From a phage, in the sequence record PZ445467.1: 46,874 nt of DNA; one strand, given 5' to 3'. This document shows positions 1,442-46,254 of this stretch, in pieces (the stretch's first letter is position 1; every line of letters begins with the position of its first letter). Position numbers and translations under genes: made by a program. The notes under the pieces were generated by a model that saw nothing but the letters and a program-made list of their open reading frames with translations, searched no databases and was not told the DNA's origin.

Positions 1442-1481
1442 TTGACCAATCTACACCGAGCGCATAGTATAATCTACATCA
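1442..1481 (+). promoter_or_regulatory. sigma70-like promoter (TTGACC 1442-1447, TAGTAT 1465-1470) overlapped by two copies of the conserved ATCTAC motif
   Basis: -35/-10 hexamers with 17-bp spacer; motif copies at 1447-1457 and 1471-1481; 21 bp upstream of ATG 1502. Confidence 0.45.
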
Positions 1482-6490: not shown

Positions 6491-6577
6491 CGTTTGATGT
6501 AGATACTATGCACCACCACTCAATCTACGTCAATAGCCATTGTGATAGAATTAATCATTATTTGAACAGGAGGCAGA
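6491..6577. promoter_or_regulatory. divergent promoter region with two copies of the ATCTAC motif
   Basis: motif at 6521-6533 (+) and inverted copy at 6496-6506; TGTGATAGAAT -10-like at 6541-6551; AGGAGG SD before ATG 6578. Confidence 0.5.
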
Positions 6578-7546: not shown

Positions 7547-8018
7547 ATACTGGCGACCACTGGCAATTATTATAATTGTTGTCTCTGGCGCGTTGTGGGC
7601 GCGTAGCGAAATCATCAGCTACGGCGACCAACGATACGCAGAAGGCAAATCCCAAGCAATCGCCGAACAGAAGGCCGCAGACGAACAAGAGGAGCAACGA
7701 CGCAATGCAGAACTGCAAAAGATTCAGGCTGACGCACAGCAAAGGATTGACGCTGCGCGCAATGATGCTGTCAATGCTGCTGCTAAGTCTGGCAGGTTGC
7801 AGCAACAGCTCGCAAATATCCGCAAGCAGCTCGTCGGATATTCCACCGCTGAGTCCATTGGCAATCCAGCCGCAGAAACCGGAGTTTTGCTTGGAGACGT
7901 GCTCGGCAAATCTGTCGAAAGAAATCGACAACTGGCAGATTATGCTGACAGGGCAAGAGAGGCAGGATTAGCGTGTGAGGCGCAGTATAATTCGCTGCGT
8001 AATAAAAAAGCCCCGTGA
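7527..8018 (+). CDS. Rz: i-spanin (Rz-like)
   Basis: N-terminal TM segment then Ala/Gln-rich coiled-coil region; GGAGG SD; follows endolysin. Confidence 0.65.
   Translation: MMSILAKYWRPLAIIIIVVSGALWARSEIISYGDQRYAEGKSQAIAEQKAADEQEEQRRNAELQKIQADAQQRIDAARNDAVNAAAKSGRLQQQLANIRKQLVGYSTAESIGNPAAETGVLLGDVLGKSVERNRQLADYADRAREAGLACEAQYNSLRNKKAP
7762..7971 (+). CDS. Rz1: o-spanin (Rz1-like lipoprotein) embedded in +1 frame of Rz
   Basis: MMLSMLLLSLAGC lipobox signal, Pro/Ser-rich 69 aa, wholly inside Rz. Confidence 0.55.
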   Translation: MMLSMLLLSLAGCSNSSQISASSSSDIPPLSPLAIQPQKPEFCLETCSANLSKEIDNWQIMLTGQERQD

Positions 8019-8036
8019 TGGGGCTTGTGTTTAATT
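8003..8036. terminator. bidirectional rho-independent terminator
   Basis: stem AAGCCCC/GGGGCTT flanked by A-run and T-rich tract between convergent genes. Confidence 0.6.
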
Positions 8037-8157
8037 GGTTTGTTAAGATTCTTCCCGCTGCTTCCACATCTGTTTCAGCTGGAAATAAGCATACGCTTCA
8101 TCACCATCTTTCGCATTGCGCTCCATTTGCTCACACCATGCCGATGGTTTTGGCGGC

Positions 8158-8463
8158 TCACTCTGCTGGCAATGTTGTTGGCTCATTAACAGATTCCTCA
8201 ACCGCAGATTCAACGATGCGCACCAGTGAGCACTCAAGATTCGGTGCATTGTAATTACCAGCCAGAAACAGAACACTGCCGGTGCTGATTAATACCTGCT
8301 TTGCGTTCGCCTGTGACAGATTCTGCACGATGAATTGCGCTGTTTCCGTGCCGATTTTTAGCACTGCGCTGCCGTCGCTGTTCAGTGATACCAGTTGTGC
8401 TGAAGTGTCGGTAATATTGGTGTAGCTCGCGTTTCGTTGCGCGATTGTTATGTCTGTGAACAT
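8158..8463 (-). CDS. hypothetical protein (101 aa)
   Basis: ATG preceded by AAGAGG. Confidence 0.5.
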   Translation of the reverse strand: MFTDITIAQRNASYTNITDTSAQLVSLNSDGSAVLKIGTETAQFIVQNLSQANAKQVLISTGSVLFLAGNYNAPNLECSLVRIVESAVEESVNEPTTLPAE

Positions 8464-8464
8464 A

Positions 8465-8686
8465 TTAGCCTCTTACGTTTAATTTGATTTTTCCATCCAC
8501 GTCGCGTGATGCACACTCAACAGTGATTGTTAACTTGGTGATCTCTTCGACGTCTGCATCAAGAATCAAGCGGACGCAACCACCAACTATTCTACCATCC
8601 TGATCAACAACGCGAATTTTATCATCGACTCTTTCAACGTGGAGCCAAACCTTTTCTTCATCACAGCCATTATTGAGAATTGACAT
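8465..8686 (-). CDS. hypothetical protein (73 aa)
   Basis: ATG with TAATG overlap to upstream stop. Confidence 0.45.
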   Translation of the reverse strand: MSILNNGCDEEKVWLHVERVDDKIRVVDQDGRIVGGCVRLILDADVEEITKLTITVECASRDVDGKIKLNVRG

Positions 8687-9117
8687 TATTTAATCTCCAG
8701 TTCTTTTGCGCGAATTGCGCTGTCAATGATGTCTTGCAAATCCTGTTCGCGCGATTTATGTCCGCGCTCGCCAGCCTGTAATGCCTTCTTGATTAAGTGC
8801 TGCAATGCAGGGTTGGTGACATTCCACGCCATGAGCACATCGTATACGTCAACAAATATACCCGGCTTAATCTCGTGCAGGTATTTGTTATCAGCCTCAG
8901 GAGCGCCAATGCAATCATTGAGGTCTTGTTCGTCGGTAATTGGCTCGCGGTATGCAATAACAACATCCCCGCGACCCTCAATCACTTCAATGCGATCAGC
9001 ATAATATTTGCTTAGATAGAAAATCTCACCAGTCCTTTCTGACTTAACTACAAGATAAGCCGCGTTATGGCCAGCAAAATCATCCTCATAACCTTTCAGA
9101 TATTTCCATTTTTTCAT
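8686..9117 (-). CDS. conserved phage protein of unknown function (143 aa)
   Basis: ORF coupled to neighbours; C-terminal AxQHxIKK...RGxK-like signature, family not verified. Confidence 0.5.
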   Translation of the reverse strand: MKKWKYLKGYEDDFAGHNAAYLVVKSERTGEIFYLSKYYADRIEVIEGRGDVVIAYREPITDEQDLNDCIGAPEADNKYLHEIKPGIFVDVYDVLMAWNVTNPALQHLIKKALQAGERGHKSREQDLQDIIDSAIRAKELEIK

Positions 9118-9308
9118 TTCATCGTCACCCGATTATTTTCATCAACATTAAAATTATCACGAATCAAATCGTACATCTCATCCTTCGGCATATCAGCCAG
9201 CGCCACATAGCAACGGGCAAAGTAGCGAACATCACGGAGTGTCAGCGGCTGCCGCTTCTCCACAATGCTGGTGATAATGTCCATCGGCTCGCGTCGTGGT
9301 CTTGGCAT
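9114..9308 (-). CDS. hypothetical protein (64 aa), first gene of leftward block
   Basis: ATG preceded by AGGAG. Confidence 0.5.
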   Translation of the reverse strand: MPRPRREPMDIITSIVEKRQPLTLRDVRYFARCYVALADMPKDEMYDLIRDNFNVDENNRVTMK

Positions 9309-9412
9309 ATTTACTACTCCTTTTTCGAAATTTATTATTGACGAATCTACGTCACTTAGTCAATACTGTTGGTGTAGAATGATTCTACCACAACGAAAGA
9401 GGTGATGTGGAA
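9309..9412. promoter_or_regulatory. divergent promoter region with ATCTAC motif copies and a 15-bp palindrome
   Basis: TTGACG 9338-9343; motif 9343-9355; palindrome GTAGAATGATTCTAC 9374-9388. Confidence 0.5.
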
Positions 9413-9610
9413 ATGCGATACAAAGAAATAGCAGCGAGCTATCAGAAGGAAGTTCGCGAGGTTATGGAAATCCTTAACGTTCGAGAGGATACCATTAAGT
9501 ATGTGGAAACTGCCATGTGTTCACTTGCTCTTGAAGCGGAGGTTGCAGGTCGTGAAAAGGCTGACGAACTTATATCTGCGTTGGTTTATAGTTCAACCAG
9601 TAACGGTTGA
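9413..9610 (+). CDS. hypothetical protein (65 aa)
   Basis: ATG 8 nt after AGAGGTGA. Confidence 0.5.
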   Translation: MRYKEIAASYQKEVREVMEILNVREDTIKYVETAMCSLALEAEVAGREKADELISALVYSSTSNG

Positions 9611-9670
9611 ATATGAAGGTTATCTGTGCGTTGAGCACGTTGTTATCAAGTTCTACGGGAGAAGTTATAA

Positions 9671-9865
9671 ATGGCGCATGACGAACTGTACGAAGAATCG
9701 TTAATCCAGCGACTGAATGAAGTTGAGCGCACACGCGAATGGCTGGAGTGCGAATTGCGAGAGGTGCGCAATCGACTGCAACGCAAACGCAGTCAACAGA
9801 AAGATGTTATCGACTGGTCTGGCAATGCACCTAAATTTAACAACATTGGAGAATGGTTGAAATGA
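9671..9865 (+). CDS. hypothetical protein (64 aa)
   Basis: ATG with GGGAGAAG upstream. Confidence 0.45.
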   Translation: MAHDELYEESLIQRLNEVERTREWLECELREVRNRLQRKRSQQKDVIDWSGNAPKFNNIGEWLK

Positions 9866-10083
9866 GAAAGTTCAGTACGTTAGTTGATTTAATTTTTGCT
9901 GACATAAGTGAGGATAACGCCAGAAGCGAGAAGTCAAAAAATCAGCGTCAGGATATTACGTTTCGCACACTGCTTAAGCAATCAATGCGCAATAAGAAGG
10001 AGTGGAGATACAGGCGCGACAGAGTTCTGATAAGACTGTGCAAATTGAATATGAATAAGATACTTAAGGATATGACCAAATGA
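9862..10083 (+). CDS. hypothetical protein (73 aa)
   Basis: ATG 9862 after GGAGAA, ATGA overlap with previous stop; track ORF starts at 9853. Confidence 0.45.
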   Translation: MRKFSTLVDLIFADISEDNARSEKSKNQRQDITFRTLLKQSMRNKKEWRYRRDRVLIRLCKLNMNKILKDMTK

Positions 10084-10328
10084 CAGCACCACATATGCCA
10101 ATGATGAATGATAGCGGGTTGCTGTGCTGCCCATTCTGTGGCGGGAATGAAGTTTACTTGAATATTGATTTAGTGCTTGTATCTGTCGAATGCGGAGATT
10201 GCTGTGCAAGTTCAGGTGAATGGGGTTCACCGGAAACCGCTGTCAGGCACTGGAACACCCGCAACGGACACCTATACACCGCAGACGACTTCAATCAGGC
10301 AGCAGAGGAGCGTGATTATGGACTATAA
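10080..10328 (+). CDS. Lar-family restriction alleviation protein-like Zn-ribbon protein
   Basis: 82 aa with CPFCGG...ECGDCC zinc-ribbon pattern and HWNTR segment typical of Lar-like proteins. Confidence 0.5.
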   Translation: MTAPHMPMMNDSGLLCCPFCGGNEVYLNIDLVLVSVECGDCCASSGEWGSPETAVRHWNTRNGHLYTADDFNQAAEERDYGL

Positions 10329-10806
10329 ATCACAAATCATGCGCGTGATTATGAATCACCCCGGTTCAACGCGCGCATATATTGAGAAGCATTGCGGAGG
10401 AAAGCATTCAAGCACCACAACGCATCGTTTGCATGAGATGCTTGCGCTTGGATTCATTCGCCGCGAGAAGTCCGTGATTCGCGGTGGGAAGTGGCAGTAT
10501 AAATATTTCATCTCTGATGATGCAGCTGGTATTGATGATGCTATTAAGTGCCATTTGCTTGATAACGCTGGCGCAGAGGTGAAAGAAATCAGCGTAGCCA
10601 CTGGCATTGATTACCGAATCGTGAAAAGCCGCATCCGCATTATGTTTCATAACGGTGATGTAACGCGAAGATATGACCACCACAAGAAGCTGTGGCGTTA
10701 TTCTTGGCATGAGAAGGAAGTTAACGTCAGCAACCTGTTTAATTCACTTCTTCGCAATGTAAGAGGTCGTCATGGGGAAAGCCAAACGCAAGAAGCAAGA
10801 GTATGA
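10318..10806 (+). CDS. putative DNA-binding protein with two winged-helix-like repeats (162 aa)
   Basis: ATG 7 nt after GAGGAG; two related segments (IMRVIMNHPGSTRAYI / KCHLLDNAGAEVKEISVATGIDYRIV). Confidence 0.4.
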   Translation: MDYKSQIMRVIMNHPGSTRAYIEKHCGGKHSSTTTHRLHEMLALGFIRREKSVIRGGKWQYKYFISDDAAGIDDAIKCHLLDNAGAEVKEISVATGIDYRIVKSRIRIMFHNGDVTRRYDHHKKLWRYSWHEKEVNVSNLFNSLLRNVRGRHGESQTQEARV

Positions 10807-10948
10807 GCCATTACCGCCATGCGAAATGTCAGGAATGCCGCAGCAGGAGGATGTGATTCTCACCGAGGCTGAGTGGCGCAAGGTGGCAAGAGTGCAAATC
10901 ATGTTCCGCAAACTTGCTGAGGACGTACTAAATGAGATGGGCTATTAA
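10772..10948 (+). CDS. hypothetical small protein (58 aa), overlaps both neighbours
   Basis: ATG after AAGAGG; below ORF-track cutoff. Confidence 0.3.
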   Translation: MGKAKRKKQEYEPLPPCEMSGMPQQEDVILTEAEWRKVARVQIMFRKLAEDVLNEMGY

Positions 10949-11279
10949 GCATAAATCTGGCAGAACTCTGTTTATTACATCGGATGAGTTTATTGCCAAT
11001 AACCGTAGAAAGATGGGCTGGATAGTGGAGGAAGTGAAGATGACGAGTAGAGAGCAGTTTGAGGAGTGGGCCAAGGAGAACGGAATGAGTCTTGTTTATG
11101 GTGACTGTGATTATGTGTATTCGCCAACCGTATGGGCGTGGAAAGCATGGCGAGCATCGCGCTCAGCAATTGAGATTGAATTGCCAGCGGTAGAGATTGG
11201 TTATGAAATGATGGAATACTACGAGCCTCAACAGGTTATTGAGGCAATCAAACAAGCAGGCTTAAAGGTGAAAAAATGA
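10932..11279 (+). CDS. hypothetical protein (115 aa; alternative start ATG 11040 after GAGGAAG)
   Basis: track ORF; GAGGAC upstream of 10932. Confidence 0.45.
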   Translation: MRWAIKHKSGRTLFITSDEFIANNRRKMGWIVEEVKMTSREQFEEWAKENGMSLVYGDCDYVYSPTVWAWKAWRASRSAIEIELPAVEIGYEMMEYYEPQQVIEAIKQAGLKVKK

Positions 11280-11602
11280 TTATCCCATTAAACGACATTA
11301 TGAAAGCAGACATCATTCAGCTTGAAGATTATGACATGCAACTGGCGTTTGAAATAGAAACTGTTGAGCGTCAACTGCAATATGCTGATAAGAAGAATGA
11401 TCGCATCTGGCATGAGAAAGCGCTTAAAGCACGGGACCACATGAAGCGCACGCGCGCACTTATTAAAACTCGTCTGGATAAGCTGTATTTTGGCGAGGAA
11501 AGATATTTGCATGGCGCAATTCTTGCGCAAATCCGTAAGGAAATGCCAATTGGCAAGTTTATGTCATACGTTCACCGCGCAAAGCAGGAGGCCGGGTTAT
11601 GA
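11276..11602 (+). CDS. hypothetical protein (108 aa)
   Basis: ATG after AAGGTGA; ATGA overlap. Confidence 0.5.
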   Translation: MIIPLNDIMKADIIQLEDYDMQLAFEIETVERQLQYADKKNDRIWHEKALKARDHMKRTRALIKTRLDKLYFGEERYLHGAILAQIRKEMPIGKFMSYVHRAKQEAGL

Positions 11603-11787
11603 GCGAACCAAAATTTCCAGAGCTGCCTGTTGAGGTTCAGGTTGCATTGATCAATGCGGCAAGTGCAATGGCGACAAAGAAGATTGAGGCAATAGGCAGT
11701 GATTACAACAGGAGCATAGACTGGTTTCAGAGGGAGTATCAAAAAATCTGCGACGCACTCTACAAAGAAAACAGGGGTAGATCATGA
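11599..11787 (+). CDS. hypothetical protein (62 aa)
   Basis: ATG start, coupled to neighbours. Confidence 0.45.
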   Translation: MSEPKFPELPVEVQVALINAASAMATKKIEAIGSDYNRSIDWFQREYQKICDALYKENRGRS

Positions 11788-11930
11788 TTCCATTACTGTG
11801 GATATTATCAGCATACGCATTCGCAAGGGTATTTGAGGCTGACACTCTGTACCAGATGATTTGCTATGGCGCTCTGTTCTGCCTATCTGGTGCTGCACTT
11901 GCATTTATGGATGATGTGATTTCAGACTAA
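11784..11930 (+). CDS. small hydrophobic membrane peptide (48 aa)
   Basis: ATGA overlap with previous stop; MIPLLWILSAYAFARVF...GALFCLSGAALAF hydrophobic segments. Confidence 0.4.
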   Translation: MIPLLWILSAYAFARVFEADTLYQMICYGALFCLSGAALAFMDDVISD

Positions 11931-11950
11931 CTCCGTATATCTTTTGTTCA

Positions 11951-11989
11951 TCATGGGCTGCTATCATTTAATCAGGAGGTAGCCCATGA
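11951..11989 (+). promoter_or_regulatory. 9-bp perfect stem-loop enclosing the SD and pairing with the start codon of the downstream peptide ORF
   Basis: TCATGGGCT (11951-11959) pairs with AGCCCATGA (11981-11989); loop carries AGGAGG. Confidence 0.5.
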
Positions 11990-12108
11990 ATATAATCCCT
12001 ATCACTTACTTTCTCACGCTGTACGCACTCACCAATTCGCCATTGTTTGCACTGGCTACCGCCTCATGGTGCTACATCTCCCTGTGTTATAATTCGACCA
12101 CAAACTAA
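11986..12108 (+). CDS. small hydrophobic peptide (40 aa)
   Basis: ATG 6 nt after AGGAGG; MNIIPITYFLTLYALTNSPLFALATASWCYISLCYNSTTN. Confidence 0.4.
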   Translation: MNIIPITYFLTLYALTNSPLFALATASWCYISLCYNSTTN

Positions 12109-12124
12109 CCGTGGAGAGTTAACC

Positions 12125-14004
<1,880 letters not shown>

Positions 14005-17668: not shown

Positions 17669-18292
17669 TTACTCCTCATCACCGGAATTAGCAATATCGT
17701 AAAACTGACCGTATGTTATCTGCTTAAAGTTATCAGGTATCGTTACCTGTCCATGACCTTCACCTTTTGTATTTGGCACGGCAAAAATCAGGCAATCATC
17801 CTTTTGCGGGTGTTTGCCGCCATGAGTAGACAGCATTGCAAAACCAAATCCGCGACCAGATTGCTCTCCGATTCCGGTGCGTGCGATGCCATAATGATTA
17901 ACAATATAGTCTTTCCATTCTGGCAATAACTTTAATTTCTCGTTTGCCTCGCGCATCACCGCGTCCAGATTTTTGTTGTATTCCCGCCCGTCTTTTGTGT
18001 TTCCTTTTCCGCGAGCCACGATTACACGCTGACCATCCAAGAACTCTTCGCGCTTTATTGTCACAGGGCACGGAAATTCAAACTGCTTACTCCACACAAA
18101 GCTCTCAAGTAAGCCACCACCGACTGCTCCCCAGCTACGTGTCGTGGTGAAAGCGATAGCGCCAACCTTTTTCATGGCGTCGCCAAGAACTTCATTGCGG
18201 CGCTTTTGGATGTCATCATATGCGTCAATAACTTTCTTAACATCAGCACCTTCAACCATGTAATAATCATAATGTTTTGCATTGCTGCTCAT
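17669..18292 (-). CDS. hypothetical protein (207 aa), first gene of leftward operon
   Basis: ATG 18292 is 8 nt after GAGGTGA; track ORF extends to 18310. Confidence 0.5.
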   Translation of the reverse strand: MSSNAKHYDYYMVEGADVKKVIDAYDDIQKRRNEVLGDAMKKVGAIAFTTTRSWGAVGGGLLESFVWSKQFEFPCPVTIKREEFLDGQRVIVARGKGNTKDGREYNKNLDAVMREANEKLKLLPEWKDYIVNHYGIARTGIGEQSGRGFGFAMLSTHGGKHPQKDDCLIFAVPNTKGEGHGQVTIPDNFKQITYGQFYDIANSGDEE

Positions 18293-18310
18293 CTTCATCA
18301 CCTCTAGCAT

Positions 18311-18409
18311 TTATTGTTGTTTCTACGTCACTAACTATAAACGCCACATCAATCTACGTCAACAGGAATATGCTAAAATCATGCTAATCAAAAAACAGGA
18401 GATTTGAGC
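18311..18409. promoter_or_regulatory. divergent promoter region with two ATCTAC motif copies
   Basis: motifs at 18319-18331 and 18350-18363; TGCTAAAAT extended -10 at 18371-18379; AGGAG SD before ATG 18410. Confidence 0.5.
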
Positions 18410-20832: not shown

Positions 20833-21497
20833 ATAAAGCCGCACGAAGCGGCCTTATTGCTGGTTTAAGCATTGCCAGCATGCTTTCTTAATATCCAGCC
20901 CCGTAACCCATACATACCCCTACATATGATTGCGATAATGCTGGATATTAAGTGTTGTGGTGGCCGGTGCTGATATCCGGCATAAGGCGCTTATTCGGCG
21001 GCGTCGAGCTTGCTTATTCGCTTGAGCCATCCTCGTGAGTCAGCCACGTCCCACTGCGCATCAGCCTGCGCATTCACCACAACGGAAATAGCACTGGATA
21101 ACCAAGCGCGCAGACTCTTCACGATTATCTGCTCAATGCTCTTACCTGTTGTGTGCCACGTTTCGTGTGGCTTACGGCAACGACATTACCGGGTTATTCG
21201 CTGCACCCTTGAGGGATTTACTAAGGCGACATGCCCGTTGTTACCCACGAATGAGAGTACTGTCTTCGAGCAGACTTTGCCGCGCAAGAACGACGATCAA
21301 TCACAATACCCTCATTTGTGGGTGCCCATTATTAATCACAGCGGGCCACTGCGCCGAATTTGCTTACAAGGAATCGGAAGACCTTGCTGACTTACAGGCT
21401 ATTACGCCGCCATCAGAACAACATCATCGTTTGCATTTATCTTTGTGGTCAGTTTCTAAAAAGTCCGCAAAGTCGCTTACGAAAACCATCTGAAATA
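20833..21497. other. ORF-poor, inverted-repeat-rich region
   Basis: no convincing CDS; 13-bp inverted repeat CTTAATATCCAGC (20887-20899) / GCTGGATATTAAG (20940-20952); hairpins at 20867-20885 and 20963-20981. Confidence 0.5.
20838..20860 (+). terminator. weak rho-independent terminator
   Basis: stem GCCGC/GCGGC with 5-nt loop then CTTATTGCTGGTTT. Confidence 0.3.
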
Positions 21498-21542
21498 CAA
21501 TCTACACCACAAAATAATCACTGTCAACACCTGTGATATAAT
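21498..21542 (+). promoter_or_regulatory. promoter of major tail gene with ATCTAC motif
   Basis: motif 21498-21510; extended -10 TGaTATAAT at 21534-21542; GGAGA SD before ATG 21579. Confidence 0.5.
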
Positions 21543-23287: not shown

Positions 23288-23337
23288 GAATCTACATCAC
23301 CACCTCGCAGGTGTCAACACCACTGAGATGATATAAT
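23288..23337 (+). promoter_or_regulatory. promoter of tail chaperone/tape measure operon with ATCTAC motif
   Basis: motif 23288-23301; GTCAACACC element; extended -10 TGaTATAAT 23329-23337. Confidence 0.5.
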
Positions 23338-27016: not shown

Positions 27017-31738
<4,722 letters not shown>

Positions 31739-37082: not shown

Positions 37083-37430
37083 TCAATCTACATCATTCAG
37101 CAAGCCAAAATAGAAAAGTGTGGCTCTTTTTAGTTCATCAAGACCGTAAGCAATGGCGGCATAATGACCAAGTCTGCACATCTCAGTTAACACAGCCGAT
37201 TGCTCCTTGCTCACTCTGCTTTTGCTTTTATCGCGGCGCTTTGACTCAATCATCCCGCAACTGTGATTCGCACCCGGCGTCATTATCACGTTGTCGCCTA
37301 TTCCAGGCTTAACCCCCATCTTCTGGCGCTTCAGTACGAACTGGACGCGGCTGGATGTTCCTGTTTCATTCGGGACGTGAAACCATAGCACATCAGGGAA
37401 ACAGTGTTGCATCCATGTTCCATAACCCAT
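37083..37430 (-). CDS. VRR-NUC domain nuclease
   Basis: HVPNE...GVKPGIGDNVIM...ESKRRD pattern; ATG 37430 after GAGGAG (track ORF has TTG at 37523). Confidence 0.5.
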   Translation of the reverse strand: MGYGTWMQHCFPDVLWFHVPNETGTSSRVQFVLKRQKMGVKPGIGDNVIMTPGANHSCGMIESKRRDKSKSRVSKEQSAVLTEMCRLGHYAAIAYGLDELKRATLFYFGLLNDVD

Positions 37431-39432: not shown

Positions 39433-39507
39433 AGCTACTAACCTTTGTTGATGTTTCTACGTCAGTTAGCTTATACTCAATCTACACCAACAATCAAGGG
39501 TCAATTT
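39433..39507. promoter_or_regulatory. divergent promoter region (helicase leftward, primase rightward) with two ATCTAC motif copies
   Basis: TTGATG 39448-39453, TATACT 39472-39477; motifs 39453-39465 and 39478-39491. Confidence 0.5.
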
Positions 39508-40461
39508 ATGAGATATGACTGGAAGGAAATCGAGCCAAAAATGATCGGCAACTGGCAGGCTGCCATCATGTCTATCGTCAATGTGGATAGCAGAGTTTTC
39601 AATGGCAAGCACCAGCCATGCCCTCATTGCATGGGGGTTGACCGGTTCCGTTGGGATAATCACTTCGAAACAAAAGGCGATGGCGGCGCAATCTGCAATC
39701 AGTGCGGTTCCGGCAGCGGCATGAATTGGCTGATGAAACTCTCCGGAATGAGCTTTCCTGAAGCACTGGAGGCGCTTGGTGGATTCCTGAACATGCACCC
39801 GCGTGAAAAGCTGGAGGCAATCAGGAAAGAGCTACCGAAGATAAATCACAGCGATGACTTCATCACCGAGCAGGAAGTCGCAGCAATCATGGCTAAAACG
39901 ACTCGTGTCGCGATGAATGAGTGGACTTTGATAAATGGTATTGGTTGCGACGTTAACGTCACCAGAGGCAAATCTGGAGAACTTATTGCGGTTGAGATGA
40001 TGCGAGCTGACACAATGAAACTGTGCAACGTGGCATTCATTGGCATGGATGGTGATTCAATCAGAACGTTTTTCCGCGCAGGATACAACAAGGACTCAGC
40101 CATCAACGGCAAACTCACGCGCGGCGCGATAAGCCCAATCGGAGAAGACAACGGGAAGTTCATTTACCTGGTATCTGATTATGCCGATGCGTGGAAGTGC
40201 CATTACTTCACTGGCGCGCATGTCTGGTGCTGCTGGTCGCCGGAAAACATGTGGGAAGTAATGCGCTCTGTTAGCGATGAAACGAAGGCGAGGTTGCGCT
40301 GCATAGTTAATTATAAATTCGACGAACTGTGTGCAGCAGAAAACGCAGGGATTCCGGTGATGCTTCCTGATGATGCCGACACTATCAGGATGGCAAAGAG
40401 AATCAGGAGAAAGATTTATGACGCTGGCGAGTTGATAGAGAAAATGTCAGTTAGAAGATAA
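39508..40461 (+). CDS. putative DNA primase / Zn-ribbon replication protein (317 aa)
   Basis: CPHCMG...CNQCG zinc-binding pattern near N-terminus; AAGGG SD; divergent from helicase. Confidence 0.45.
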   Translation: MRYDWKEIEPKMIGNWQAAIMSIVNVDSRVFNGKHQPCPHCMGVDRFRWDNHFETKGDGGAICNQCGSGSGMNWLMKLSGMSFPEALEALGGFLNMHPREKLEAIRKELPKINHSDDFITEQEVAAIMAKTTRVAMNEWTLINGIGCDVNVTRGKSGELIAVEMMRADTMKLCNVAFIGMDGDSIRTFFRAGYNKDSAINGKLTRGAISPIGEDNGKFIYLVSDYADAWKCHYFTGAHVWCCWSPENMWEVMRSVSDETKARLRCIVNYKFDELCAAENAGIPVMLPDDADTIRMAKRIRRKIYDAGELIEKMSVRR

Positions 40462-43042: not shown

Positions 43043-43486
43043 ATTATGATTGAATCATATCATAAGTATTGAATCATGCAACATCAAATACGACTCACGT
43101 GGGTAACGTGGGGCAGCCGTGGGGAACATCACCTTCCCCACGAACTTTTACTCTAAGTATATGTAATATAATATAATTATTATTATTTGGGTTAATGGGT
43201 AATATTATTATTCATATTATAGATAGTAATTAACATAATATTAACAAATGGATTATTTGAATATATTTATAAGGGGATGGGTATGAAATCTGCCCCTTTT
43301 TACCCACGAAAAATAAAAACATTCAAATCAATAATTTACGATGAAAAACGTGGGGCAACCAACCTTCCCCACGACCTGCCCCACGAGCAAAAATTTACCC
43401 CACGGGCACGTTTTTAACGCATCCCTGTTGACGTAGAATCATCGTTGATGTAGATTGAACTCATCGAAACAAACGAGGGTGAAGAG
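43043..43486. promoter_or_regulatory. origin-like region: two clusters of CGTGGGG/CCCCACG heptamers flanking a ~155-bp AT-rich tract, plus divergent promoters
   Basis: heptamer copies between 43098-43142 and 43301-43407; AT-rich 43145-43300; TTGACG 43428-43433 and TAGATT 43451-43456; inverted motif copies 43429-43439, 43446-43457. Confidence 0.5.
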
Positions 43487-46110: not shown

Positions 46111-46206
46111 ATGTGTTTATGATGCTCTGTTGGCAAGCGCGATAATGATGGTGTACAATAAACGCATAACCACCATTGCTTTCACTCATATCATCACCCA
46201 ACCTTT

Positions 46207-46233
46207 AACCCGCCTTGTGCGGGTTCTTTTTTA
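46207..46233 (+). terminator. rho-independent terminator
   Basis: stem AACCCGC/GCGGGTT with 5-nt loop then CTTTTTT. Confidence 0.6.
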
Positions 46234-46254
46234 TCTACGTCTATGTGTTAAAAT
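46232..46254 (+). promoter_or_regulatory. promoter-like element with ATCTACGTC motif upstream of putative terS
   Basis: motif 46232-46241; TGtgTTAAAAT extended -10-like 46245-46254. Confidence 0.35.

Follow-up and report, generated by a model that had tools for sequence, protein, structure and literature searches.

A clade-wide promoter motif with a candidate tandem winged-helix reader, and a Lar-like protein with a hypervariable core, in the accessory region of a Skatevirus-cluster siphophage

What does a Lar-like protein do for the phage that encodes it, and what governs the two divergent blocks of small genes among which its gene lies? Both questions are raised by positions 8043-11930 of sequence record PZ445467.1, a phage DNA of 46,874 nucleotides that was analysed over its full length and is called the window below. 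The region encodes a small zinc (Zn)-ribbon protein of Lar type and, next to it, a protein with two winged helix-turn-helix (wHTH) domains, and copies of a short motif lie in the promoter region from which the blocks diverge. An earlier reading, made from the letters alone (the sequence-only reading), had seen a host-takeover region with an anti-restriction protein and a candidate regulator. Its description was accurate and its family calls were right at the level of domain and fold; the functions it assigned, anti-restriction and early host takeover, find no support apart from the family name. The region is a small non-structural/accessory gene module of a Skatevirus-cluster siphophage. The reading we favour, which we judge to have somewhat better than an even chance, is that of an accessory module with a divergent promoter read through the motif, a Lar-like protein with a variable core and a wHTH regulator.

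The window is almost certainly the complete genome of Escherichia phage SusanneMuster (Bas79, PQ850629), a siphophage of the BASEL collection. Sites for restriction-modification (R-M) systems in the window (EcoKI, 1; EcoRI, 5 palindromic sites or 10 on both strands; EcoRV, 12 or 24; EcoP1, 46) agree with the counts of 1/3/10/24/96/46 given for Bas79 (PMC11990801, S1 Table). Escherichia phage ClaudiaMuster (Bas77, PQ850598) matches the whole region at 98.4% identity, and 152 related records, mainly from Salmonella and Escherichia phages, were found for the region. A placement among Jersey-like phages (Guernseyvirinae) was dropped for the Skatevirus cluster, following the BASEL paper and the taxonomy of phage KFS-SE2. 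A sister group of Klebsiella siphophages (∼46-48 kb; for example VLCpiS13d and KP591P1) has the whole module, namely the promoter core, the motif, a Lar-like gene with exchanged core cassettes and a tandem wHTH protein that is 38% identical. Gene presence was counted in 27 relatives with full flanks, the promoter alignment comprised the window and 33 relatives (34 sequences), and the Lar orthologue set held 66 distinct sequences, 33 from the Escherichia coli/Salmonella group and 33 from the Klebsiella group.

The motifs CPFCGG, CGDCC and HWNTR, on which the Lar assignment had been based, are present in the product of 10080-10328. The assignment itself stood with one profile and fell short with another: the PF14354 (Lar_restr_allev) match, covering residues 14-62 and profile positions 3-58 of 58, scored above the gathering score (34.2 versus 28.6 bits), whilst TIGR03655 missed its cut-off (35.2 versus 39.6). 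The Lar-like protein also matched phrog_599 (5e-14), and most of its database homologues likewise carry PF14354. Over 45 residues it is 33% identical to Lar/RalR of the Rac prophage, and CPFCG, the second CxxC and WNxR are kept; it is not a RalR orthologue, scoring 18.3 bits against the RalR equivalog NF007260, for which the cut-off is 113. An AlphaFold2 (AF2) model, built with database homologues, gave a beta-hairpin ribbon at a predicted local distance difference test score (pLDDT) of 85. Residues C17, C20, C38, C41, W58, N59 and R61 were invariant or nearly so in alignments of 42 and 66 sequences.

Between these fixed residues the protein is far from constant. It divides into three parts. 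An N-terminal peptide (residues 1-18) and a segment with WNTR and an acidic C-terminal helix (58-82) are conserved, with mean pairwise identities within the E. coli/Salmonella group of 0.81 and 0.87, respectively; the core between them (19-57) is hypervariable, at 0.34. We distinguished 24 core types, 4 of them common to the E. coli/Salmonella and Klebsiella groups. The contrast is also seen in the DNA, where the identity of relatives to the window was 0.48 in the Lar core, 0.90 at the 3′ end of that gene and 0.88 in the gene for the wHTH protein; as a whole, the Lar-like gene was 54-93% identical across the 27 relatives and its neighbours 88-100%. A database of 5.8 billion proteins yielded 57 Lar clusters (48-85% identity) against 6 full-length wHTH clusters (90-94% where alignable). 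The hypervariability of the core is real, and it is undescribed as far as the literature searched shows; no annotation or paper on it was found among those searched.

A conserved frame around a swapped core that keeps its Zn ligands and WNxR points to cassette exchange under diversifying pressure. The pattern suggests that the protein recognises something variable and so, in general, a role in host interaction or counter-defence. The protein is most likely a factor of one of these two kinds; we read its core as a module of specificity towards a partner that varies among hosts, and the conserved terminal peptides could provide both a functional scaffold and the recombination anchors for core swaps. 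On this model, at least 24 core types would have been swapped across E. coli, Salmonella and Klebsiella phages, tracking a variable host defence or target.

The sequence-only reading was more specific: the Lar-like protein would be a working early restriction-alleviation factor that dampens restriction, raises modification, or both, by type I R-M enzymes of the host, and the block around it a host-takeover region. The profile matches just described, the CxxC...CxxC and WNxR pattern in common with RalR and the retention of the gene in all 27 relatives are in its favour, a hypervariable core is what would be expected of a protein that tracks variable Hsd subunits, and Rac Lar is reported to have both restriction-alleviating and modification-enhancing activity (King and Murray 1995, as cited in PMC4041452). 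Against it are the missed TIGR03655 cut-off and the distant RalR equivalog; for nearly all members, moreover, the Lar family name is an annotation rather than a tested function. Published plating data speak more directly. Bas79 gave 1.4e8 plaque-forming units (pfu) on the vector control, 1.4e7 with EcoKI (one site) and 8e4 with EcoCFT_I (three sites), that is, efficiencies of plating (EOPs) of ∼0.1 and ∼6e-4, and Bas77 was similar, the two phages having 2-3 EcoCFT_I sites and a single EcoKI site (PMC11990801, S1 Data). [quoted passage not shown] The plating data lack an isogenic deletion as reference and give no indication of strong protection despite the Lar-like gene. The EcoKI figure says little, because linear DNA with only one type I site makes a poor substrate in any case. 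The rightward block, finally, lies directly upstream of the head genes, co-directional with them and with no intrinsic terminator between, and this contiguity argues against early host takeover. PADLOC matched no protein of the block, and no transcriptome for this phage clade was found in the literature searched. An anti-restriction role thus goes back to the family name and is unproven, as is early expression of the block; for this protein, restriction alleviation of the kind known from Rac Lar is no more than one possibility among others, and we consider it unlikely.

Three observations touch on restriction in this phage more widely. The genome's single EcoKI site (GCAC-N6-GTT) is at 37176, and the scarcity of type I sites (1 for EcoKI; 3 for EcoCFT_I in the BASEL table) may reflect site avoidance. 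Immediately to the left of the 18.3-kb promoter, Bas77 and KFS-SE2 have a small gene annotated ‘anti-restriction protein’ (Bas77_0047 and KFS-SE2 gp78, respectively); because tblastn found no copy of Bas77_0047 in the window, Bas79 seems to be without that annotated gene. The corresponding slot in the window (17669-18310, minus strand) encodes a 213-residue protein that matches phrog_2260 and phrog_22326 and has no Pfam match.

A second possibility is suggested by RalR, which has been reported to be a non-specific DNase and the toxin of a type I toxin-antitoxin pair (PMC4041452): the Lar-like protein could likewise damage host DNA during infection. The homology over 45 residues is what speaks for this. 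Given the RalR equivalog score, and since an enzyme active site is unlikely to tolerate 24 unrelated core types, we regard a DNase or toxin as very improbable; Rfam, moreover, matched no family in 7900-12300, and so no antisense RNA family.

The preferred reading of the Lar-like protein, a variable-core specificity module, leaves the control of the region to be explained. Copies of an ATCTAC-type motif had been noticed at the divergent promoter, and they proved to belong to a genome-wide set well beyond chance. WWTCTACRYCA has 15 exact copies in the window against 0.375 in shuffled sequences (shuffle maximum 3), and the shorter AATCTAC occurs 11 times where 4.5 are expected. The motif recurs at the majority of the genome's promoter regions and is spread over at least eight of them. 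Eleven of the 15 copies are intergenic or at promoters and four lie in the Bas77-annotated 5′ ends of g48 and g77, where the gene calls are doubtful; one copy is at the g75 stop and one within g65. The copies are frequently paired, 17-31 bp apart, and inverted pairs are typically separated by 27 bp (26 bp at 9344/9370) in the window phage, Bas77, KFS-SE2 and the Klebsiella group. Bas77, with 15 copies, and Salmonella phage KFS-SE2, with 14, carry the motif at syntenic positions. Klebsiella-group loci, whose wHTH protein is only 38% identical, are enriched for it as well, with 6-13 copies in each locus of 20 kb.

At the divergent promoter of the module the motif is embedded in a compact core of ∼60 bp. 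A promoter scan gave three overlapping candidates there, P_R, P_L1 and P_L2 (Table 1), and because they overlap within ∼60 bp, RNA polymerase binding to them would be mutually exclusive. Four elements were invariant in the 33 relatives: TTGAC (9338), TCTAC (9346), GTCAAT (9359) and GATTnTAnCA (9382-9391), the last of which reads on the minus strand as an extended -10, TGnTAnAATC. The Klebsiella sister group keeps the core, including the minus-strand TGaTATAATCTACGTCA, in the form TGaTATAAT/CTACGTCA (here and below the slash marks the end of the -10). A 26-bp version of the core was found in 69 of 2.9 million IMG/VR viral contigs, all in the Skatevirus/Klebsiella groups. One exact motif copy lies in the spacer that P_R and P_L2 share and another at the predicted start of P_R, so placed that they could serve as operator for the overlapping divergent promoters.

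The 15-bp palindrome noted at this promoter is exact (GTAGAATGATTCTAC, 9374-9388) and extends to 13-nt arms (9368-9394). As a key feature it was set aside: it is not statistically unusual (7 palindromes of the 7+1+7 type in the window versus ∼3 expected), and the perfect form occurs in ∼7 of the 34 aligned sequences, the window counted, the others being 5 nt shorter. The conserved unit is the motif, of which the palindrome is two copies head to head; the right-hand copy arises from a 5-nt insertion variant found in those ∼7 sequences.

A candidate reader of the motif is encoded directly downstream of the Lar-like gene. The AF2 model of the product of 10318-10806 (pLDDT 83) bears out the predicted two-repeat winged-helix fold, with two tandem domains, WH1 (residues 3-65) and WH2 (69-130), and a helix at 139-152. 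In structure comparison, both domains matched solved DNA-binding regulators and had the H1-H2-H3 and two-strand wing arrangement. The repeat is structural only, as no internal repeat between the halves was detected at sequence level. Residues invariant between the two phage groups cluster in the WH2 recognition helix (K103, R105, R107) and in the wing (R117, W126, Y128, W130). The family is confined to this phage clade, with 8 representatives among 1.84 billion proteins. The wHTH start overlaps the Lar stop by 11 nt. The pair, which appears to be translationally coupled, is also found in synteny among the Klebsiella-group phages, under the annotations ‘Lar-like’ and ‘MarR family’. The protein scored 18.5 bits against Pfam MarR_2, for which the gathering score is 27, and because two winged-helix domains are modelled in one chain, its architecture is not that of MarR. 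Pfam and PHROG scans of ten further small open reading frames (ORFs) beside motif promoters gave no DNA-binding family, so that the wHTH protein is the only recognisable sequence-specific transcription-factor-like protein near the motif promoters checked.

On these grounds the wHTH protein is the strongest candidate for reading the motif. We propose that it binds the asymmetric 11-12-bp motif as a monomer; it would then regulate the phage's transcription programme and autoregulate the 9334-9393 promoter. Because motif and wHTH gene co-occur at clade level only, we put this a little below an even chance.

How the motif sits relative to core promoter elements bears on what reads it. Three arrangements were seen. 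In the first, the motif is in the spacer, right after the -35 hexamer (1448, 9344, 39454, 18320), and it is often paired with the second, in which it adjoins or overlaps the -10 and lies across the start site (1471, 39479, minus-strand 6495, the palindrome at 9374). In the third, it lies 12-13 nt upstream of an extended -10 without a -35 (6522 before lysis, 18351 before the connector genes). A fixed ‘activator box at -35’ was rejected as a general model, the distance from the motif to the extended -10 ranging over 1-29 nt, and kept as a partial pattern only. The extended -10 TGnTAnAAT itself is modestly enriched (14 in the window versus 8.6 expected), and eight such elements without a recognisable -35 (Table 1) suggest a single class of late promoter, placed directly ahead of each late/structural operon.

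It is also possible, though we think it doubtful, that the motif is a promoter element for host RNA polymerase, acting at the -10, discriminator or start, perhaps with a phage appropriator, or that it is the site of another protein, from phage or host. The wHTH protein would then do something else, such as Ren-like exclusion escape or other nucleic-acid binding. At several sites the first three bases of the motif complete a -10, as in TATAAT/CTACATCA at 1468, TAGTAT/CTAC at 6495 (minus strand) and TACAAT/CTAC at 21496, and Bas77, KFS-SE2 and the Klebsiella group have the form TGnTAnAAT/CTACGTCA. Read on the minus strand, the copies at 21499 and 23289 provide a TAGATT that stands 17 nt beyond a perfect TTGACA. 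As for a Ren-like function, wHTH residues 63-135, which include WH2, matched phrog_142 (‘Ren-like exclusion protein’) weakly, at 5.8e-6. These observations have to be set against the lack of a single register, the motif following the -35 at four sites and preceding an extended -10 at two others, and against the match of both wHTH domains to DNA-binding regulators; BLASTP of the wHTH protein against lambda Ren returned nothing at E values up to 100. A general role of the motif as a minus-strand -10 was rejected, as TTGACA-N17-TAGATT fits only 21499 and 23289 and not the other sites.

Two winged-helix domains in one chain, and an asymmetric repeated motif with pairs 17-31 bp apart, are also reminiscent of iteron-binding plasmid Rep proteins, in which case the wHTH protein would bind a replication origin and the motif copies would be iterons. 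The copies are not clustered at one locus but dispersed over the promoter regions, the replication genes are 25 kb away, and the protein has only 162 residues and no Rep-family match in Pfam, NCBIfam or PDB searches. An origin-binding role is hardly credible.

For the wHTH protein as reader of the motif, a switch can be proposed that fits some of the sites. The two operons leave one ∼60-bp promoter/operator conserved in the clade, whose overlapping promoters should admit RNA polymerase one at a time, and the wHTH protein, made from an operon with a -35-type promoter, would shut -35-type promoters and help the extended -10 late promoters. We offer this as a hypothesis because the spacing elsewhere varies over 1-29 nt.

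Several considerations weigh against the favoured reading as a whole. Weaker constraint together with recombination, and not an arms race, could account for the variable core, and Bas79 and Bas77 are restricted strongly by EcoCFT_I and ∼10-fold by EcoKI although both have the Lar-like gene. The position of the motif relative to -35 and -10 is heterogeneous, and no one simple mechanism fits all sites. Another clade-specific protein (for example g26, g28 or the ParB-like protein) or RNA polymerase could be what reads it. In the scanned region, sigma-70-like sites were no commoner than in shuffled sequence; as the scan does not exceed the shuffles and the starts are unmapped, the promoter assignments derive from conservation. 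That both parts hold together, with the Lar-like protein a cassette-exchanging specificity module and the wHTH protein and motif a previously undescribed global transcription switch, we consider unlikely.

The remaining genes give the module its frame. ORFs are present at all the coordinates that had been proposed and match Bas77 coding sequences (CDSs) at 95-100% amino-acid identity, and they form, as described, a leftward and a rightward block diverging from a conserved region. The leftward operon has five genes (8043-9308) and the rightward ten (9413, or GTG 9407, to 11930), separated by 98-104 bp. On the left the module is bounded by the bidirectional terminator at 8008-8026, which separates the end of the leftward block from Rz, a gene of the lysis operon; terminators are annotated at the equivalent place in ASO78B. 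On the right, a hairpin at 11951-11989 is not a canonical terminator because it lacks a U-run; it may be a site of translational control or RNA processing. The perfect extended -10 at 12085-12093 probably gives the head operon a promoter of its own and would thereby set the right boundary of the block.

Apart from the Lar-like and wHTH genes, the block consists of conserved or swappable ORFans. Gene g27 is exchanged for an unrelated gene in about one-third of relatives, and g28 is probably a coiled-coil protein, judging from weak coiled-coil Pfam matches. The N-terminal half of g25 corresponds to phrog_17775, and the ∼55 residues at its C-terminus (YDVLMAWNV...GERGHKSREQDLQD...) make up a domain found in at least six PHROG families with differing N-termini, one of them labelled ‘ATPase’; g25 as a whole had no Pfam, NCBIfam or PADLOC match. 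The 48-residue membrane peptide proposed for the end of the block is encoded at 11784-11930 (g36), and hydropathy gave it two hydrophobic stretches. According to a genome-reduction (CiPGr) study, 53 of the 81 genes of Skatevirus seszw can be removed.

Table 1. Coordinates of the module and of motif and promoter sites elsewhere in the window. Fractions of relatives refer to the 27 with full flanks; aa, amino acids; RBS, ribosome-binding site
Feature	Position	Strand	Description
Bidirectional intrinsic terminator	8008-8026	both	hairpin AAGCCCCGTGATGGGGCTT, T-runs on both strands
g22	8043-8186	-	47 aa; phrog_1312; 100% identical to Bas77_0022; 18/27
g23	8158-8463	-	101 aa; phrog_16624; 24/27
g24	8465-8686	-	73 aa; phrog_38236; variable accessory; only 9/27, mostly ∼39% identity
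g25	8686-9117	-	143 aa; mosaic; 7/27
g26	9114-9308	-	64 aa; first gene of leftward operon; phrog_14963; 27/27, 89-100% identity
Promoter/operator core	9334-9393	both	three overlapping promoter candidates (promoter scan)
P_R	TTGACG 9338-9343, N18, AATACT 9362-9367	+	promoter scan
P_L2	TTGACT 9363-9358, N18, AATAAT 9339-9334	-	best scan match, 10/12
P_L1	9390-9382	-	extended -10 TGGTAGAAT; promoter scan
Motif copy 1	9344-9354	+	AATCTACGTCA; exact; in spacer of P_R and P_L2
Motif copy 2	9370-9380	-	ATTCTACACCA; exact; left arm of palindrome, at predicted P_R start
Motif copy 3	9382-9392	+	ATTCTACCACA; 9/11 positions; right arm of palindrome, overlaps P_L1 -10
g27	9413-9610	+	65 aa (67 aa from GTG 9407, MSVEK...); phrog_37091; 17/27
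g28	9671-9865	+	64 aa; core gene; phrog_15697; 27/27
g29	9862-10083	+	DUF7301 protein, PF23975 83.4 bits; variable; 13/27
Lar-family Zn-ribbon protein	10080-10328	+	82 aa; 27/27
Tandem winged-helix protein	10318-10806	+	162 aa; phrog_1687 4.6e-57
g32	10772-10948	+	58 aa; core gene; phrog_17117; 25/27
g33	10932-11279	+	115 aa; divergent (48-75% identity); phrog_343
g34	11276-11602	+	108 aa; core gene; phrog_14549; 26/27
g35	11599-11787	+	62 aa; variable; phrog_16865; 7/27
g36	11784-11930	+	48-aa peptide, two hydrophobic segments (hydropathy); core; phrog_18423; 26/27
Hairpin, 12-bp stem	11951-11989	+	-20.4 kcal/mol, z-score only -1.7; covers g37 RBS and ATG
g37	11986-12108	+	40-aa hydrophobic peptide; 27/27
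Extended -10 TGTTATAAT	12085-12093	+	perfect; no recognisable -35; 32 nt upstream of first head gene
Motif site	1448-1458	+	additional 10/11 copy
Motif site	1471-1481	+	exact
Motif site	6495-6505	-	exact
Motif site	6522-6532	+	exact
Motif site	18320-18330	+	exact
Motif site	18351-18361	+	exact
Motif site	21499-21509	+	exact
Motif site	23289-23299	+	exact
Motif site	27707-27717	+	exact
Motif site	37085-37095	+	exact
Motif site	39454-39464	+	exact
Motif site	39479-39489	+	exact
Motif site	43429-43439	-	exact
Motif site	43446-43456	-	exact
Extended -10, no recognisable -35	2691	+	upstream of portal
Extended -10, no recognisable -35	6543	+	upstream of lysis
Extended -10, no recognisable -35	18371	+	upstream of connector
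Extended -10, no recognisable -35	21534	+	upstream of major tail
Extended -10, no recognisable -35	23329	+	upstream of tail
Extended -10, no recognisable -35	31736	+	upstream of tail fibre
Extended -10, no recognisable -35	46246	+	upstream of terS region
Shared module, Klebsiella-group viral contig L042	8930-9130 of contig		
Shared module, Klebsiella-group viral contig L075	9150-9350 of contig		

Some further features were seen around motif sites elsewhere in the genome. At the major-tail and tail-operon promoters a second common element, TGTCAACACC, stands between the motif and the extended -10 (21520-21530 and 23313-23323). The minus-strand TTGACA-N17-TAGATT at these two sites, with the motif as -10, makes a good leftward promoter, which at 23289 could plausibly serve g62 (23249) and at 21499 would be antisense. 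The start of the Bas77 primase (TTG, ∼39451) places a promoter, TTGATG-N18-TATACT, and two motif copies inside the CDS (39445-39510); the ATG at ∼39508, preceded by AAGGG, is more likely to be the start. At 46200-46254, in front of the terS-region genes, terminator and promoter adjoin in a compact junction: a hairpin resembling an intrinsic terminator, CCGCCTTGTGCGGGTTCTTTTTT, directly precedes a near-motif, TATCTACGTCT, and an extended -10, TGTTAAAAT.

Bas77-81 belong to the BASEL collection and serve the community as model phages, and for a small virulent siphophage without its own RNA polymerase, a defined 12-bp motif with a single candidate regulator provides a testable handle on the order of transcription. 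The motif with its candidate tandem-wHTH reader is real, clade-wide and, as far as the literature searched shows, undescribed, a finding of moderate scope. ‘Lar-like’ proteins are very common in phage genomes and almost never tested, and the variable core supplies a natural allelic series for finding their binding partners; if the interpretation given here is true, they would be counter-defence proteins of a polymorphic family and not simple modulators of EcoKI. A caution also follows: the label ‘Lar-like restriction alleviation’ is not evidence of anti-restriction, the phages that bear it here being among the most R-M-sensitive in the collection.

The Lar and wHTH labels themselves already stand in the GenBank records of near-identical phages, so the finding as first noted repeats existing annotation. 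Orthologues with the same genes in the same order are Bas77_0030/Bas77_0031, KFS-SE2 gp12/gp11, the DS8 ‘MarR family protein’ and those of Klebsiella phage VLCpiS13d, labelled ‘Lar-like restriction alleviation protein’ and ‘MarR family / winged helix-turn-helix’. These records give names only, and the motif is annotated in none of those inspected; nor is it mentioned by any paper in the literature searched, where the only phage-related match was a primer.

The closest known counterpart of the Lar-like protein is Lar/RalR of the E. coli K-12 Rac prophage, with which it shares a small Zn ribbon, CPFCG...CxxC and WN(T/K)R. Unlike RalR, it has clade-specific N-terminal (MxAPHMPMMNDEGLLE) and C-terminal (NGHLYTADDFNQAAEERDYGL) peptides and a hypervariable core, and its phage stays sensitive to type I R-M. 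The settings differ too: the window gene lies beside a wHTH gene in a virulent phage, whereas RalR belongs to the recombination operon of a prophage and is accompanied there by an antisense RNA.

For the wHTH protein, the regulators of the MarR/ArsR/PadR kind offer one comparison. MarR acts as a dimer with one wHTH domain per subunit and binds a palindrome, whereas the putative site of the window protein is asymmetric. The T4 MotA box, at -30 of middle promoters, and phi29 p4 exemplify phage regulators that reprogramme host RNA polymerase, and in common with them the window has a short asymmetric box recurring at many promoters of one phage. At two late-type promoters (6522 and 18351) the box takes the place of the -35, 12-13 nt upstream of an extended -10, and at other sites it overlaps core promoter elements in the manner of a repressor. 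The differences from MotA and p4 are that the wHTH protein has no sequence or fold relation to them, that the position of the box is not fixed and that no AsiA-like co-factor was identified.

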